A stretch of DNA of 64,000 nucleotides from Octopus vulgaris (lineage: Eukaryota): positions 116,870,001 through 116,934,000 of the forward strand of contig OX597818.1 of the NCBI GenBank assembly GCA_951406725.2, read 5' to 3'. Below the pieces are notes generated by a model. It searched no databases, had not been told where the DNA came from, and was given only the letters and a program-made list of their open reading frames with translations. Position numbers and translations under genes: made by a program. Shown here one piece after another: positions 2,073 to 56,468 of this stretch. Every line of letters begins with the position of its first letter. Position 1 is the first letter of the stretch.

Positions 2073-3499
2073 TAATTGGTATGTGTTCACAAAGTCCAAA
2101 CGATTAATACGAAAAAACACTCCAGGCTACATCCCGAAAATTCATTTCTTTGCCGAATTTCTACAATGTTTACGGCGATTCGTTTTTATATCTTGATTTT
2201 TTTTTTATTTTTCATGCAATTTACATATGCTTGCACGCGTGCTGAACACAGTTCACGTCAAACAGCTGACTGAGTAAATTCACTATTCAACGCATGGGAT
2301 AAGGCCTAAACAAACACATTATCGATTTTTGCACTTGCGAGATAAATTTCGGAACAGAAATAGCGCAGTTCAATTTTCATTCGCCTAAACTTTAAGTGAC
2401 CATTTTAGGTGGTTCTACCATTTGTTGGCTAGGAGGATATGTGCCGGGAAGTTAAACATACAGACACACAAACAGATACACACACAGACACAAAAGTTGA
2501 GTTTTATATATAAAGATATATCTTCTATCTATCTACATACACGTATCTACGCGCGCGCGCGTGTGTGTTTGTATTTGTGAGACCGTTTGCAAAGGAATTT
2601 CACCTCAGCTGAGCGAAAATTATGAGATTATAACAAGCAGGTTGGTAGAATAATAGAAAGACTAGAAACAGTTATACTCATATAGAATAACGTAGTAGAT
2701 AATACGTGGTTTTGTTCTGAGTAATAAAAGTTGTTTTTTTTTTACTTTGTAAGTCCGCATAATAGCTAGATTGCTAACAATGCTAGGTAAACTACAGATT
2801 GTGCGTTAGTCATTGCGGATATTTGGAGTTAATAGAACATAATGGCTACGGATCTTTTATGATCAAAACAAAGCTAAAAGTATCACTTATAGCCTAAAAT
2901 TTTGTGAGCGTTTTGTTTAATGTGCCGTCTGATCCAATTATATCAGACGAATATCCTTATGAGTTTAAAAGATGCACTCAATACCGCTTGTTTAAACCTA
3001 AAATTGTGGATGGTAATATGTTGCGTGTTTCAAACTCTTCAACAGATAGTATTCATTTCTATGTTTTTCAATGTTTAACTTCGAAGGTGGATCTATTCAA
3101 TCTAAAACATATCCACTGTGTAGTGGCATTGCGTATATATAATAATTTAAGCCACAAAATGTCAAACCATAGCATAGATTCACGGGGAGACAAGACATAT
3201 ATACACTCAAAATATTTTATTGCAAGTATATAATGTCTCACTAAATCTGGTTTTAGCTCTGTCAAAACACGAGTGGACATATACATTACTCTATGTATAC
3301 ATTATTAAACTGAGTAAAACGACGGATTTACTACCAAGAAACTTCTTTAAACGATTCTACCTCTGACGTATTCAACAAATGGAATGTAAGATAATATCTG
3401 CACAAAATCTTACCTTCGAACTACAGGAGTGAGAAGCGTCGAAACAATTGTAGTGATTTTATATAATGAATATCGTTAATTCCATTTTCTGACTTTTAC

Positions 3500-8874: not shown

Positions 8875-9385
8875 TATCTTTTCTTCTCTTGGCACAAGGA
8901 CCAAAAGTTTTGGAAAGAGGGAGTCAGTCGATTAGATCGACCCTAGTACGCAACTGGTACTTAATTTATCGACTCTGAAAGGATGAAAGGCAAATAATCT
9001 TTTCTACTGTAGACACAAGGCCCATAATGTTTGGAAAGATGGAGTCAGCCGATTCGATCGACCCCAGTACGCACCTGGTATTTAATTTATCGACTCTGAA
9101 AGGATGAAACTCGGCGGAATTTGAACTCAGAACGTAAAGACAGACAAAATACCTATTTCTTTACTACCCACAAGGGGCTAAACACAGAAGAGACAAGCAA
9201 GGACAGACAAACGGATTAAGTCGATTATATCGACCCCAGTGCGTAACTGGTACTTATTTAATCGACCCTGAAAGGATGAAAAGCAAAGTCGACCTCGGCG
9301 GAATTTGAACGCAGAACGTAACGGCAGACGAAATGCCGCTAAGCATTTCGCCCGGCATGTTAACGATTCTGCCAGCTCGCCGCCT
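8875..9385 (-). mobile_element. tRNA-derived SINE family A, tandem multimer
   Basis: Head ggcggcgagctggcagaatcgtt and B-box-like gttcaaattcc on the minus strand. The core is repeated three times. Confidence 0.9.
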
Positions 9386-16708: not shown

Positions 16709-17123
16709 GGCGGCGAGCTGACAGAAATGTTAGCATGCCGGGCAAAATGCTTAGCGCTATTTCGTCTGCCGTTACTTTCTGAGTTCAAATTCCGCCGAGG
16801 TCGACTTTGCCTTTCATCCTTTCGGGGTCAATTAAATAAATACCAGTTACGCACTGGGGTCGATATAATCGACTTAATCCGTTTGTCTGTCCTTGTTTGT
16901 CCTCTTTATATTTAGCCCCTTGTGGGGTATAAAGAAACAGGTATTTCGTCTGCCGTTACATTCTGAGTTCAAATTCCGCCGAGGTCGACTTTGCCTTTCA
17001 TCCATTCGGAGTCGATTAATTAAGTACCACTTACACACTGGGGTCGATGTAATCGACTTAATACCTTTGTCTGTCCATATTTGTCCCCTCTATGTTTAGC
17101 CCCTTGTGGGTAATAAAGAAATA
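16709..17123 (+). mobile_element. SINE family A dimer with a 16-bp TSD
   Basis: Full head followed by two core units. TSD ggtatgatggttaaaa at 16692-16707 and 17124-17139. Confidence 0.93.
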
Positions 17124-17973
17124 GGTATGATGGTTAAAACTGGAACAATTTTGATCATAGCTCCATTTGCTTACAGTCGAAATGGAGATTAAAGAACACT
17201 AATCATTCAAGCAACCAACGCAATCTTCCAATACATTACAGCATCCAACTGAAATACACTTCCCTGTCTCTATATTTAACCACACTTATTCGCCTACACA
17301 CGAACCATAAGGCAACAGAATGTGCCATTATACATTACATCAAAAATAGCGTAACTAATAGTATATTGCTGTTTATTTTTTGCTTCATATTTAAACATCG
17401 CTTCAAAGTTCTATTTAAAGAAATATATACGTAAAAATCACTTTAAACCCAAATGAAATAACTTCAGTTTACATTAATAGACATAAAGTTTAATTTTCTT
17501 CTTTATTTTTATTTTTTGTCTGTGTATTTAGCATATAGGGAAAACTTAGTCTATGATCAGCACGATTTTCATGATTTGAAAAATGATTAAAGATAAAAAA
17601 AAAAATATATATAATGAGTAGGATTTGCGGAAATTATTTTTTTGTATACAAAAAATTGTTAGTCTATAATAAACACGCGTGATGTGCATGTACATATACG
17701 GTATAATTTATACAGATAATAAATTGCTCACGTATATAAATTCGTAAACACACAAGCTCACATACAAACGCACATACGAACACATTTATATATGTATATG
17801 TACATATTAATTAGTCTTGCATATACCACGTTTTCTTGCATGAAATTCACAGTTTTCTATTAATTTAATATTATCAGCCGTAAAAATAGATATTTAAAAA
17901 ATAGGTTCAGTAAAACAATACAAAAATAATCAATGATAATTTCTTTCTCTTATATTATAAGCTAGAAACCGGT

Positions 17974-24840: not shown

Positions 24841-27627
24841 TGAAATTATTGTATACAGTGCTCAGGTGCACCACAACTTGTCAGAAAGTGCGTATAAAAT
24901 ACATGCAGTAATGTAAAAATGTCTGGAAAGCGAACAATGTATAAGTCAGATACATGCTTGTGTGTGTATGGAGGGGAGAAAATCAGGTGTAGTGTTGGCG
25001 AATCTCAGAAAGCATGGAACTTTTGAAGGACGCAGTGCTCCGTCAACTAACAACTGATGCCGGCAGTTTGTTCCATGCTTCAGCAACACTCAGCGTGAAA
25101 AAATGTTTCCTGAAGTCATGGGATCTGTGCTGTTTTCTTTTTTTGTAAATATGTCCACGGGTGTTAGATGGGTGGAGTTTGAAAAGGTGCTCAGAGTTAT
25201 TGTTTGTACGATGGTTGATAATTTTATGGGTGTCTGCCAAGTCAGCTGCCAGACGTCGGAGTTTCAGTGTGTCCATGCCCAGGGAAGTAAGGCGTTTAGG
25301 ATATGGCAAATGCCTGATGGAGGGTATTCTTTTGGTTGCACGTCGCTGAACGGCTTCCAGGTGAGGTCTTACCATAGCACTATAAAGCCGCAGATAGATA
25401 GCCGGAGAGCGGCTCACAAAGGATTTGGTGAGTGATGCCAAGACACCCTCAGCCTTCTTGACAATTTTAGCAATGTGTTTTGTCCAACGCAAATCACTGT
25501 CGACAATAACACCCAGGTCACGTTCACATGAAGACTTTTTGAGACTAGTGTTGTGGAGGGAGTAGGTGGACGCTGGGTTTCTCCTCCCAAAATGCATGGT
25601 GGTACATTTGTCCACAGCCAGCTTGAGTTGCCAGTCCATGATCCACTGCTGCATTGTGTCCAGGTCTGCTTGCAATAGAGATCTATAGTGTACAGGATTT
25701 GACCTCTTTATTTCAAGGTACAGCTTGATGTCATCTGCATATTTCAGCACTGTGGCATTCTTTAAGTTGGCATCTATGTCATTAACATATGCAACAAATA
25801 ACAGGGGGGCCAAGAACAGATCCCTGTGGTACACCAGATGTCATCTCATAGGGCGAAGAGTGCTGTCCTAGAACTGTGACAACCTTTTTCGGCCGAAAAT
25901 AAAGGACTTCAACCAGTTATAGAGTTCGTCACTTACACCCAACGCAGAAAGCTTCACCATAAGTCTTTTGTGTGGCACAGAGTTAAAAGCCTTAGCAAAG
26001 TCCAGGTAAACAACATCCACCCAGGGTCCGCGATCAGTGATTTGGGTAACGTCCTCAAGAAACTCGATTAGTTGATTACAGCAGCTGGAGTTAGGAATAA
26101 ATCCGAATTGTGACGGCTGGATGAGGCTGTGAGACTTCCAGAAGTTCCAGAGGGTTTCTCTGATACAGGATTCCATCAGTTTGGCGATGCAGCTAGTAAG
26201 ACTGACGGGGCAATAGTTGACAAGCGATGTGCGGTCGCCTTTTTTGAACAGAGGGATGGCACTGGCAGTTTTCCACTGTTCTGGAGTAACACCATTGTCA
26301 AGACAGAATTGGAAGAATAGAGAAAGTTGGCTTAGAAGAAAGTACCCACCGCGTTTGAGAAGTAGGTATGTAACACCATCGAAACCAGGAGAGGCATAAT
26401 TGCGTTTATTCTTAAGGTAGCGTTGCAGCATTGCTGGTGTAAATTGCATAGTAGATATGGAGTCCGATGTCAGTGGTGATGAAGATGGAACATTTTGGTC
26501 TTCGACAGTAAAGATGCCGGCATAGCATCCAGCAATGATTTCTGCACATTCTTCGGGATTGCCAGTAATCTGTCCTGTGTGGGGATTGCGAAGGGGACCA
26601 ACTGGAGAGTGGGGTCTCTGCTTTGAGTGCACATACTTCCAGAACACTTTGCTGTCAGGGTTAACTGCAATGCGTTGTTCAAATTCAAGCACTGCCTTTT
26701 TTGTCACCTGCTTGAGGTGGTTGGCTGACCTATTGCGCTTTTTCCTGTTGCTCTCTGATTTGTGCAATTTGTATTCCAGTTCAGCATTACGGCGCTCTTT
26801 CCTGGCAAGCCGGACTGCTGCAGTCTCCCAAATTGCACTATTGGGTGTTTTTTTGTGCTTGCGTGGTACTGATGCTGCACATGCTGCCCATATTGAATTC
26901 AGAATGTTCTGGAGTATAGTGTCCACATCTCCAGAGGCATAAAATTCGCGCCAGTTTGGGCGTTGCAGCTCAGTACAATAAGAGCTCCAGTTTGCTTTAT
27001 TCCAGTCAAAGCGGGCAGTCTGAAGATGGTTGTGGTTTTTGTTACAACCAATCAGAGACAAGTCCATGATCATGGAATGATCAGAGTCACCTAAAGGTTC
27101 TTCGGTAGTGACACTAATGATTGTTTCAGGAGAAGCGGTAAGTAGCAGATCCAAAGTGTTGTTACCCCTTGTGGGGGAGGTAACAACTTGGGACCAATTT
27201 GAATTCAGCACCAGTTCAAGGAAATCGTCTGCACTTTGCGGCCAACGGAAGGCCTCCCAGTCAATCTCAGGGAAATTGAAGTCGCCCGCAATATACACAT
27301 ATGTGGCTGTTTTCATGGCAGCAGCTCTGAGGATATCAAAAAGCTGTGCGTCTTGGCGATAATTTGGGGGGCGGTAAACGACTCCGAGCAGAAGTGTTGA
27401 CATGGTCATGTTATTTCTTTATTGTTGACATGGTCATGTGTATATTGCAGAAAAATACTTCCTGCTGAGATTGGTTCAAATCATCACCGGGGATTGCCGA
27501 TAGACTTGATCGAACATAAATCATCACACACCCTCCACGGCGATTAATGCGGTCTTTGCGGAACAGGTTGTAGCCGGCTATGCTGAAAACTCCATCACAG
27601 AGTGCAGAGTGTGCCCATGTTTCCGTG
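24841..27627 (-). mobile_element. 5'-truncated CR1/L2-group LINE: ORF2 (APE endonuclease and RT) with frameshifts, plus 3' UTR ending at (TA)n
   Basis: APE motifs TETW..GYNLFRKDR..RGG, VYRPP, GDFNFPEIDW, LDLLL and SDH. RT motifs QFGF, YLDFAKAFNSVPH, PLLF and YADDIK. C-terminal VQRRATK.IP and FF..VAEAWNKLP. Split over ORFs 25868-27409 and 25043-25834. Confidence 0.95.
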
Positions 27628-37349: not shown

Positions 37350-37715
37350 AAAAAAATACAATCCATTCACAACGAAATGACTTCGGGAAGAAGATGTCAT
37401 TTTAGTGAAATCCACCGAATTTATTGATATGCTTATCTGGATATAATGAACATTTCTGAAGATTCCTTGAAAATGCAGCATCATTCAGAGAACGGAATAT
37501 CTAATACTACAGGACCTTATAGAAACTGTCTCATATGCTATGATTGATGAATAATAAAACAATATGCTATGATTGATGATTTTCTTTTTTTTTTTTTTTT
37601 TTTTTTTGGTAAGAGATAAAATATCTAAAATAAAATTTCTGTAATGCTGGACGAAACCATTGTAATTTCAAATTCATTTCAGTTGGCATATGTGCTTTGC
37701 TATTTACTAGATAAT
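37350..37715 (+). mobile_element. Degenerate hAT (ZMYM1/Charlie-like) transposase remnant, probably extending upstream
   Basis: From 37638 it reads SVMLDETIVISNSFQLAYVLCY, close to the hAT motif FSI.LDETTD.S...QL....RY. The upstream GISNT..DLIETVS resembles S..IQN.LI..I. Confidence 0.55.
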
Positions 37716-37782
37716 GTCTATTAATACAGTTCTATAGTTAAGAGATGAAGAATTACGTTCACTATTTACATTATTTACCTCG

Positions 37783-37834
<52 letters not shown>

Positions 37835-37954
37835 AATCAAGGAACGGCCATAATAGGCCATTCACCCACTAGAAATAACAGCCAAAGCTTCAACCGCAAA
37901 ACAACATTAATTCCGCAAACCAGGAGAAAATTTAAAAAACATTTACCCTGTAAT

Positions 37955-38057
37955 TTCTTATACGATGCACCGTTTCATCTATTGTTTAATTGTAAACTAA
38001 CCTGATTAAATTAAATCAAGCTAATCTTCCATAGGCCGATAGATTCGTCAGTAAGAA
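37955..38057 (-). ncRNA. Type I hammerhead ribozyme, unit 1
   Basis: Minus strand: TTCTTA-CTGACGA-ATCTAT...ATAGAT-GAAA-CGGTGCATCG-TA-TAAGAA. Stems I and II are 6 bp each, and the cleavage triplet is GUA. Confidence 0.88.
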
Positions 38058-38439
38058 CAGCCAGATCGGAGCAGATAATTTTCACGAGGCACTTCTATCC
38101 CTTGCCTCGGCAATATCTGACCTAAAATTTTCAAATCATCGCACTCGCGCCAAATTTATCGGCAGCAAATATAAGCTGCCGATTCCATTACGGAATTAAC
38201 CAGAAAATTCATAATTAATCAATATAGGGTGGCAAAAAATTTCGTAGAATTTTTTTGCCACCAGCGGCCTAGTGGGAAAAAATTAAATAGTCATAGACCA
38301 TTTATAAGTTCAACATCACAATCAAGGAACGGCCATAATAGGCCATTCACCCACTACAAATAACAGCCAAAGCTTCAACCGCAAAACAACATTAATTCCG
38401 CAAACCAGGAGAAAATTTAAAAAACATTTACCCTGTAAT

Positions 38440-38542
38440 TTCTTATACGATGCACCGTTTCATCTATTGTTTAATTGTAAACTAACCTGATTAAATTAAA
38501 TCAAGCCAATCTTCCATAGGCCGATAGATTCGTCAGTAAGAA
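38440..38542 (-). ncRNA. Type I hammerhead ribozyme, unit 2
   Basis: Same fold as 37955-38057. Confidence 0.88.
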
Positions 38543-38925
38543 CAGCCAGATCGGAGCAGATAATTTTCACGAGGCACTTCTATCCCTTGCCTCGGCAATA
38601 TCTGACCTAAAATTTTCAAATCATCGCACTCGCGCCAAATTTATCGGCAGCAAATATAAGCTGCCGATTCCATTACGGAATTAACCAGAAAATTCATAAT
38701 TAATCAATATAGGGTGGCAAAAAATTTCGTAGAATTTTTTTGCCACCAGCGGCCTAGTGGGAAAAAAATTAAATAGTCATAGACCATTTATAAGTTCAAC
38801 ATCACAATCAAGGAACGGCCATAATAGGCCATTCACCCACTACAAATAACAGCCAAAGCTTCAACCGCAAAACAACATTAATTCCGCAAACCAGGAGAAA
38901 ATTAAAAAAACATTTACCCTGTAAT

Positions 38926-39028
38926 TTCTTATACGATGCACCGTTTCATCTATTGTTTAATGGTAAACTAACCTGATTAAATTAAATCAAGCCAATCTTC
39001 CATAGGCCGATAGATTCGTCAGTAAGAA
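38926..39028 (-). ncRNA. Type I hammerhead ribozyme, unit 3
   Basis: Same fold as 37955-38057. Confidence 0.88.
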
Positions 39029-40122
39029 CAGCCAGATCGGAGCAGATAATTTTCACGAGGCACTTCTATCCCTGCCTCGGCAATATCTGACCTAAAATTT
39101 TCAAATCATCGCACTCGCGCCAAATTTATCGGCAGCAAATATAAGCTGCCGATTCCATTACGGAATTAACCAGAAAATTCATAATTAATCAATATAGGGT
39201 GGCAAAAAATTTCGTAGAATTTTTTGCCACCAGCGGCCTAGTGGGAAAAAATTAAATAGTCAAAGACCATTTATAAGTTCAACATCACAATCAAGGAACG
39301 GCCATAATAGGCCATTCACCCACTACAAATAACAGCCAAAGCTTCAACCGCAAAACAACATTAATTCCGCAAACCAGGAGAAAATTAAAATTTTTGAACC
39401 CAAAAATATGAACCCAAAAGCAAAATAGTTGCTCAGGCCTTTGATTTTGTTGTTATCATGACTGGCCAATTAACTGGCCAGTGGTCAAGAGGCGAGGGGA
39501 AATATCCAAATAATTTTTTCATTCACAGTTTAGGAAGCAGAGGAAATTTAGTCGTACCGCTAGCTATAGTAAGTGTAAAAAAACGCAAAGTATTCTTTAT
39601 GAATATTTGTTTCTTGTCTATAAAGCTATAAAAATACCGCATATTTGAAATTAAGCAACGAAGAAATATATCAGTCACTCATTGGAATTATCCCTCAAGA
39701 CTTGCCGAAATTTCATTTGACTGTAAATAGTCACTTCTCGCTATGTTTATAAAATGAGACGTCCTATATCTGATACACCGTATAAGTCATCTATCTATAC
39801 AGGTGGCTTGTTATTTTTTATTATCCATCAAAAATTTTAATTTTAATTTTCTCTTAAATCACTTTTGTAACATTTCCGTATTGTCAGATACACTATGCAA
39901 TGTATGAGAGATAAACATTTATGATTTATCTATTGTGTCAAAAAAAGTAAGATACAGCTGGCTTTGGAAGAGAAGAGACAGGAGCAAAACAACATTTTTG
40001 AAACAATGGAACATAGTTAAATGAAACTATTTAAAATAAATGAAAGTGAGTCTGTGTTTAAATGACACGTAAGAAATGATGAAACGAAGACTTCATTCTC
40101 GCAGTTATATGTAAAAGTATAT

Positions 40123-55889: not shown

Positions 55890-56468
55890 CCTTTCTAGTA
55901 TAGACACAAGGCCTGGGGTTTAGGGAAGGGGGATAATCGATTACATCAACCCCAGTGCGTAACTGATATTTAATTTATCGACCCTGAAAGAATGAAATGC
56001 AAAGTCGACCTCGGCGGAATTTGAACTCAGAACGTAGCAGCAGACGAAATACCTATTTCTTTACTACCCACAAGGGGATAAACACACAGAGGACAAAAAA
56101 GGACAAACAAACGGATTAAGTCGATTATATCGAACCCAGTGCGTAACTGGTACTTATTTAATTGATCCCGAAAGGATGAAAGGCAAAGTCGACCTCGGCG
56201 GAATTTGAACTCAGAACGTAGCGGCAGACGAAATACCTATTTCTTTACTACCCACAAGGGGATAAACACACAGAGGACAAACAAGGACAGACAAACGGAT
56301 TAAGTCGATTATATCGACCCCAGTGCGTAACTGGTACTTATTTAATTGATCCCGAAAGGATGAAAGGCAAAGTCGACCTCGGCGGAATTTGAACTCAGAA
56401 CGTAACGGCAGACGAGATACTGATAAGCATTTCAAACGGCGTGCTAACGATTCTGCCAGCTCGCCGCC
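55890..56468 (-). mobile_element. SINE family A trimer, period about 182 bp
   Basis: Head at 56468 followed by three tandem cores. Confidence 0.93.

Follow-up and report, generated by a model that had tools for sequence, protein, structure and literature searches.

A type I hammerhead motif with a long, structured stem II in a tandem retrozyme-like repeat of Octopus vulgaris

Within a 64,000-nt stretch of Octopus vulgaris DNA (the window), the minus strand of positions 37977..38044 forms a 68-nt arm inside a hammerhead-like motif. What is this arm, and what keeps it folded? A preliminary description of the DNA had regarded it as an unusually long insertion into stem II. We consider it quite likely that the stretch forms the long stem II in the type I hammerhead of an ORF-less, 485-bp non-LTR retrozyme, for which self-cleavage in dimers and copying into (TA)n by the reverse transcriptase (RT)-endonuclease of a Penelope-like element (PLE), probably of the Hydra clade, are predicted. 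The genomic copies themselves display the catalytic core, stems that covary, a long arm that is conserved and the pattern of insertion.

The hammerhead motif and its repeat unit

In the first unit, the type I hammerhead motif read from the sequence lies on the minus strand at 37955..38062, with a score of 149 bits under model R1, which was built from relatives that include unit 3. The predicted cut falls between 37961 and 37960, after GUA. Corresponding minus-strand motifs were found in unit 2 (38440..38547; cut 38446/38445) and unit 3 (38926..39033; cut 38932/38931). Stem I of unit 1 pairs UUCUUA (38057-38052) with UAAGAA (37960-37955) and is followed by the catalytic core CUGACGA (C3-A9; 38045..38051), the long stem II, GAAA (37976-37973) and stem III, a 12-nt self-complementary palindrome (37962..37973) that is predicted to pair between two ribozymes. 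On reading the sequence, the order of CUGANGA, GAAA and NUH is correct for a type I hammerhead. Three helices surround the core and stem I is open; stems I-III are 85-99% paired, and both stem I and stem II contain doubly changed pairs. Of 235 records, with overlapping loci counted, 229 have GUA or GUC as the cleavage triplet; its extraction demanded the core and A, C or T at the last position, not GU.

Stem II of unit 1 consists of a 6-bp base (38044-38039 with 37982-37977), a 6x6 internal loop and a distal hairpin (37989..38032). Thus, 56 nt lie within the base, as first counted. The distal hairpin has 18 bp in the family, with one mismatch, and 98.1% of its cells are paired over 18 lineage representatives. 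Its A/U apex (38005..38016) is near-invariant, with the loop UAAUUU at 38013-38008. The internal-loop strand CGGCC (38034..38038) and the 5′ flank of stem I, GGCUG (38058..38062), are predicted pseudoknot partners. The hairpin had been described as 13 bp (38026-37995) with four G-U pairs, pairing fully in the minus-strand RNA only. Its length is really 14 bp, and the strand preference holds: stem II of unit 1 folds with -17.0 kcal/mol (z -3.5) on the minus strand versus -7.3 kcal/mol (z -0.3) on the plus strand. The family helix extends this hairpin by four pairs (AUGG/CCAU). In units 1 and 2, one of these pairs is lost through a C-to-A change (37991 and 38476), which is present in only one of 32 subfamily-A insertions.

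The G-U pairs had been taken to identify the functional strand. The strand is in fact set by the catalytic core, which is not present on the plus strand. The G-U content helps, since the sense strand folds better in 41 of 42 representatives; the antisense stem II also folds well in some lineages (C1, z -4.6; D8, z -6.1). The observation that the first pair of stem II is A-U instead of G10.1-C11.1 is true in the window and represents one state among several in the family: the 10.1-11.1 pair is G-C in lineage D and A.A, G-U, A.C or U.U elsewhere. Thus, the window lacks the G10.1-C11.1 pair, which is usual in hammerheads and not obligatory. An active hammerhead with a U.U variant at the base of stem II has been reported (PMC3088659).

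Rfam gave no gathering-level match in the window and no hammerhead match at E up to 10 in 37700-39500, a failure that we attribute to the long stem II. The prediction that descriptors with short stem II limits would miss the motif was therefore borne out for Rfam, and the same is implied for a core-only descriptor with a 7-17-nt spacer (PMC8557442).

The motifs are carried by a minus-strand tandem array of 3.2 copies of an ORF-less, retrozyme-like unit (37830..39390; TRF period 485, 99% matches) with boundaries at 37830-38314, 38315-38800 and 38801-39283 and a partial copy at 39284-39390. Every unit in the window carries one type I hammerhead motif, in keeping with the tandem-repeat definition of a non-LTR retrozyme, and the motif of unit 3 has the commonest subfamily-A sequence. 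The GC content of the unit is 0.37 in the window and 0.34-0.37 across monomers. There was no ORF of at least 120 aa in the unit-bearing loci L001, L002 and L006. The array follows a (TA)n microsatellite target (37786..37831), which lies at the RNA-3′ end of the insertion. Of the two preferred 3′ ends, the first is position 37830, which lies 131 nt past the cut. The second preferred 3′ end of the family, which delimits a PLE-type tail, corresponds to minus-strand positions 38205..38215, about 236 nt past a cut, and is internal in the window array.

Several other features of the window were recorded. At 38160-38280 and 37842-37863, recurring in each unit, there are strong hairpins and short blocks that are kept across lineages of 61-65% identity; lying near the two start sites, these are candidates for a promoter or for signals recognised by the RT. 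A G-rich tail past stem I (37940-37949, minus strand) is kept in all lineages and can pair with the pyrimidine-rich 5′ flank to give a distal stem I. A reading of this tail as a 5′ splice site was dropped because GT is missing in lineage E. At 25043-27418 (minus strand), frames of 516 and 265 aa, which we take from their motifs to be endonuclease-like and RT-like, mark a LINE remnant. Tandem repeats of 121 and 184 bp, presumably SINE-derived by their general look, lie amid dense microsatellites at 8876-9109, 16758-17128 and 55937-56420.

In runs X5 and X8, which are labelled as other organisms, the unique flank from 39402 onward is covered at about 97% identity and contigs diverge from the window at the array edge; this sequence pattern hints at an empty site. 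In both runs, the depth of the family is thousands of times that of the flank. No RNA data set was listed among the public runs that contain the family. The contigs of four runs guessed to be RNA do include it, with unit-to-unit joints, and in the two that were compared with the flank the unique flank had almost no depth. Traces of DNA from a family thousands-fold deeper than unique DNA could give the same picture as expression.

A dispersed family and the maintenance of the long arm

The genome (2.8 Gb, 227 contigs) was searched with several patterns. A pattern of core, apex and GAAA gave 2,549 matches, against 8 for its reversed control, and the core with a 50-80-nt spacer gave 2,136 sites, against 88 for the control. 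When the stem III palindrome was fixed, a spacer of 45-75 nt gave 2,358 matches and a spacer of 6-36 nt gave 12, of which 4 were lone, single-copy internal deletions of the family. The copies are dispersed over many chromosomes. What was examined is a sample of the more than 2,000 matches, namely the loci listed first or scoring best: about 70 insertions from lineages A, B, C and G and about 45 loci from D, E and H. In a scan of metagenomes, the long-arm pattern had 0 matches.

Monomers taken from six arrays measure 474-499 bp and are homologous over their whole length, with 61-93% pairwise identity. The A/U apex is identical in all six; it was partly selected by two of the search patterns and not by two others. 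A model made from lineages A, B, C and G detects D, E and H at 63-82 bits, and some lineages of the family are just 61-65% identical. Stem II is 54-68 nt long in all homologous lineages. The arm is therefore a trait that was fixed long ago rather than inserted recently, and the word insertion in the preliminary description is misleading.

That description had also concluded that selection acts on RNA structure, from the pairing itself and from a T/C difference between units. The difference is real (38022 versus 38507 and 38993). Its direction was misread: rather than a substitution in units 2 and 3, it is a private G-to-A change in unit 1, given that 18 of 19 insertions that share a linked stem-I tail have only G, the window array being the sole mixed one. 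The pair is retained, as claimed, yet the same array holds the helix-breaking change described above. Moreover, a single transition leaves a Watson-Crick pair as G-U about half of the time by chance. The conclusion stands on family-wide evidence rather than on the observations first offered.

The family-wide evidence is as follows. Among 18 representatives of lineages A, B, C and G (alignment A1), 96.0% of cells are paired, with 7 doubly changed pairs; slid controls gave 25-47%. Among 18 representatives of D, E and H, 92.7% are paired, with 11 doubly changed pairs; slid controls over both sets gave 23-47%. In comparison with shuffles, the number of doubly changed pairs is exceptional in D/E/H (6 of 500) and not in A1 (166 of 500); these fractions are not probabilities because the sequences are related. 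The distal hairpin of A1 contains only 1 doubly changed pair. Neutral change would yield G-U and A.C columns at about 1:1. In the distal hairpin read on the sense strand, G-U to A.C columns numbered 12:2 in A1 (more safely 11:2, because of one MAFFT misregister) and 10:1 in D/E/H.

Random disruption of the helix in other copies, which had been named as an argument against selection, is seen in one class of variants and not in the other. In subfamilies A and B (32 and 22 insertions), 5 of 6 variants shared by several insertions keep pairing, while only 4 of 15 private variants do so (Fisher p 0.046). From these sequences, lineages that amplify appear to be under selection, whereas copies, once inserted, decay at random. 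The window itself contains private changes: the A (from G) of unit 1 and the helix-breaking change of units 1 and 2. The comparisons suggest that the distal hairpin is retained by selection on the RNA of amplifying lineages, most likely as a structural or protein-binding arm.

Cephalopods perform heavy ADAR editing. The G-U-rich hairpin might have arisen from A-to-I editing of double-stranded RNA that was fixed by retrotransposition and then passively inherited, with no selection on the arm. Many one-sided states are indeed A/G alternations, and among shared variants A>G changes on the sense strand outnumber T>C changes (16 versus 9, p 0.04). Over all variants the two are balanced (31 versus 32), G-C/G-U and doubly changed pairs occur that editing cannot produce, and deletions of the arm exist yet did not amplify. 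We consider passive inheritance of edited copies quite improbable and retain selection on the arm as the explanation.

Insertion pattern, predicted folding and a candidate partner

The outer ends of the insertions follow a regular pattern. Among 113 outer 3′ ends, 55 lie at 126-136 nt and 48 at 225-245 nt past the cut, so that 103 of 113 fall at two sites; 103 of 113 also adjoin (TA)n. Because the insertions sit in (TA)n, target-site duplications are unreadable. Inversions were found in 43 of 70 insertions (lineages A, B, C and G), and the occurrence of tandem together with inverted, 5′-truncated copies is a PLE-type feature. Two internal RT start sites that bound a tail have been described as unique to PLEs (PMC11167929). 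The insertions thus look Penelope-like in their (TA)n targets, in the two positions at which their 3′ ends are fixed and in their inversions.

Could the array be a satellite, propagated at the DNA level by unequal crossover, with the hairpin as a cruciform? Near-identical units arranged head to tail are what such a satellite would give. The copies, however, are spread over many chromosomes, their 3′ ends are fixed on (TA)n and many are inverted; furthermore, the core is strand-specific and the G-U pairs are strand-asymmetric. This origin is largely refuted, and we give it hardly any probability.

The cDNA crosses the cut site at 152 junctions, where another unit lies upstream of the unit. Units diverge by 0.7% within insertions and by 3.6% between them, which fits a circular or multimeric template. 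Of 116 5′ ends, 13 are at the cut, above an even spread; because of this excess, some templates may be linear cleaved RNA.

The folding of the RNA was then considered. Across representatives, stem II begins with a base of 4-6 bp, which is followed by an internal loop and a hairpin of 15-19 bp. Modelling makes it reasonably likely that the 5′ strand of the internal loop pairs with the 5′ flank of stem I as a pseudoknot. At least 4 bp are possible in 27 of 29 representatives, where the 7-nt windows were picked after the sequences had been seen. For the loop of lineage C, the score is 11.8 when paired with its own flank and 6.0-7.4 with other flanks, both strands being changed at up to three positions. 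When the pseudoknot was predicted before the D/E flanks were read, GG and a pairing base were found at 8 of 9 new loci and the exact 5-mer at only 2 of 9; the prediction failed for lineage E4. The GG/CC centre hardly varies, and A/B/G flanks pair with D/E loops as well as with their own. Every type of hammerhead has known examples of such base-paired contacts (PMC3088659). We rejected the 3′ tail as a partner for the internal loop in place of the 5′ flank: it scored lower in 27 of 29 representatives, equally in one and higher in one. Kissing through the palindromic apex was judged unlikely on geometric reasoning.

For stem III of the window, the calculated energy is -17.5 kcal/mol as a self-duplex versus -0.2 kcal/mol as a hairpin; the six commonest variants give -14 to -19 and 0 to -1.7 kcal/mol, respectively. 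One lineage has a central GC-to-AU double change in stem III that is pairable only between molecules. The best fold of the monomer sequesters the core by 7.4 kcal/mol. In the models, this sequestration fits control by dimers but fits inactivity too. Stem III and the monomer fold match the dimer model for metazoan hammerheads (PMC4209133). Among 9 predicted Xenopus retrozymes, 8 showed no cleavage in vitro (2026 preprint, 10.64898/2026.07.22.740005).

Is a protein available that could copy the unit? The genome contains a young PLE, the best 150 hits of which are 98-100% identical over 232 aa; many lie in an open frame of 727 aa. The element, with this frame intact, has many near-identical copies (L082/L083 19-2199, plus strand; L111-L114). 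Its target is (TA)n, its two 3′ ends are separated by about 72 nt, and its pseudo-LTR (pLTR) carries a minimal hammerhead. The motifs RWK, DKT, CxCX5C, CxxC and CxH fit the Hydra clade (PMC8557442), and a Neptune label for this autonomous element was wrong. Pfam and PDB sequence searches with the 727-aa ORF gave no match; the Atlas groups it with HTH_animal/GIY-YIG clusters. At L076/L114, the young PLE and a retrozyme array lie tail to tail on one (TA)n tract. The PLE and the unit have no detectable common sequence and their 3′ ends differ. The young Hydra-clade PLE is thus a candidate partner, distinct from the element itself.

Alternatively, the unit might be the pLTR of an autonomous PLE yet to be seen, with the arrays as its truncated copies. 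The full set of PLE insertion hallmarks would be expected of such copies, and other long-stem-II hammerheads do sit downstream of PLE ORFs. One example is a Hydra-type family with a pLTR-like region (L250, about 2991-3090, plus strand; L273-L292), in which the hammerhead has a 55-nt stem II and a canonical G-C pair; a PLE ORF lies upstream in 3 of 20 loci of this type, and a first look gave 293 candidate sites. At L238 (about 2132) and L235 (about 2163), both in the ORF sense, branched stems II of 59 and 63 nt lie about 500 nt past GIY-YIG-like fragments, L235 having an unusual A at core position 7. In the old lineage F (L070-L072, L255-L263, L268), stem II is about 60-80 nt, the A/U apex is similar and the 3′ ends are on (TA)n; remnants of PLE ORFs lie upstream in at least 3 of 25 loci (L071, L257, L259). 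In the supplement to PMC8557442, two cephalopod Naiads are marked HHR_half_core, and Hydra-1_Obim is listed for an octopus. However, neither lineage F nor the PLE-linked long arms have detectable homology to the 485-bp unit by nhmmer (over 264 kb from PLE and F loci, the monomer nucleotide profile had no match below E 3.9), and the unit has no homology to any of the pLTRs tested, a sample of PLE families. In 166 overlapping loci (524 kb), there is no contiguous RT and GIY-YIG ORF and no PLE ORF continues into a unit of the family, and the few hits by tblastn belong to separate elements; at the 152 junctions, what precedes a unit is another unit. A pLTR origin is, in our judgement, improbable, and we continue with the ORF-less retrozyme.

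The following cycle is proposed for the retrozyme. The minus strand would be transcribed as a multimer. Neighbouring hammerheads would be joined by the 12-nt palindrome of stem III and would then cut at GUA or GUC, while a lone monomer would fold into an inactive form. The internal loop of stem II would pair with the 5′ flank of stem I in substitution for a loop-loop contact; because this contact would take over the loop-loop role, we propose that the core tolerates a distal hairpin of such length. The monomers might circularise, or multimers might remain uncut. Finally, a PLE protein would nick (TA)n, and RT would begin 131 or 236 nt past the cut and run through the cut, to give tandem and inverted arrays.

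The hammerhead may instead be a weak or dead scaffold, the fold being kept solely as a binding platform for a PLE protein that uses uncut multimers as templates. The variable 10.1-11.1 pair, the inactive monomer fold and the reading of cDNA past the cut would all suit a dead scaffold, and ribozyme mutants of an anole PLE were still inserted in vitro (PMC11167929). Such a scaffold would not explain why the triplet is GUA or GUC in nearly all records (229 of 235), nor why stems I and III covary. We regard a weak or dead scaffold as unlikely, although less so than a pLTR origin or passive inheritance of edits, and prefer cleavage in the multimer.

A wider interpretation is tentative. Long-armed hammerheads might be an overlooked structural class of PLE and retrozyme ribozymes, in which the A/U apex docks the Hydra-clade RT-endonuclease or a host factor for ORF-less circular RNA, and the pseudoknot and palindromic stem III confine cleavage to multimers. 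If so, some PLEs reported as having no hammerhead or a half core (for example, the cephalopod Naiads of PMC8557442) would hide long-armed ribozymes, and this genome would supply a matched young pair, autonomous and non-autonomous, for the reconstitution of retrozyme mobilisation.

Comparison with known systems

By its sequence-level features, the element is a long-stem-II variant of a non-LTR retrozyme. Like metazoan non-LTR retrozymes (PMC7229834; bioRxiv 10.64898/2026.07.22.740005), it is tandem, low in GC, ORF-less and dispersed, has one type I hammerhead per unit and coexists with PLEs. The unit of 474-499 bp is longer than the 150-450 bp given in PMC7229834 and within the 51-972 bp of the preprint. 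In contrast to the 4-bp helix of the canonical metazoan retrozyme motifs in these sources, stem II is 54-68 nt here, and the tertiary contact, unlike that of metazoan retrozymes, is a probable pseudoknot. The idea that animal retrozymes derive from PLEs and are non-autonomous has already been put forward in the preprint, the main text of which mentions no mollusc; there the link is made by co-occurrence and pLTR homology, mainly in vertebrates, whereas here it is made through insertion signatures.

Hammerheads of PLE pLTRs (PMC4209133; PMC11167929) are likewise of type I, with a palindromic stem III suited to dimers and an enlarged helix II, and the elements share the tail between two RT starts and the inverted truncated copies. 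However, their helix II is 6-8 bp with a conserved G10.1-C11.1, as compared with a two-part arm of about 24 bp and a variable 10.1-11.1 pair here; moreover, the present element differs from pLTR elements in its tail of about 105 nt and in having no ORF. Hydra-clade PLEs (PMC8557442) have the (TA)n target in common with the unit and no sequence homology to it. Pseudoknotted hammerheads (PMC3088659) have a base-paired stem I/II contact in place of the loop-loop contact, as is predicted for the motif, and likewise tolerate U.U at the base of stem II. Their stem II is commonly very short, whereas the predicted partner in the present motif is an internal loop with an 18-bp hairpin on top of it.

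In the titles and abstract openings of the open literature, we found no account of the family or of a conserved stem II so long; supplementary alignments might contain motifs of this kind. Lunse and colleagues reportedly described in 2017 small PLE hammerhead variants that cleave as dimers. The discontinuous Clec2 hammerhead of rodents, which belongs to an mRNA, is likewise broken by a long insert. That insert spans hundreds of nucleotides and is not a conserved folded arm in a mobile repeat. The rodent Clec2 hammerhead has a very large loop (PMC3088659).

The new features are the probable pseudoknot between the internal loop and the 5′ flank, the invariant A/U apex and the 12-nt palindromic stem III, which in folding models favours cleavage in dimers. 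The long arms widen the natural architecture of hammerheads to a structured stem II of 54-80 nt. Because Rfam misses the motif at more than 2,000 sites in one genome, censuses of ribozymes and retrozymes are probably undercounts. The two RT starts, the targeting of (TA)n, the inversions and the read-through of the cut are footprints for the proposed mobilisation of animal retrozymes by PLEs, and the young, intact Hydra-clade ORF in the same genome makes this question testable in vitro.
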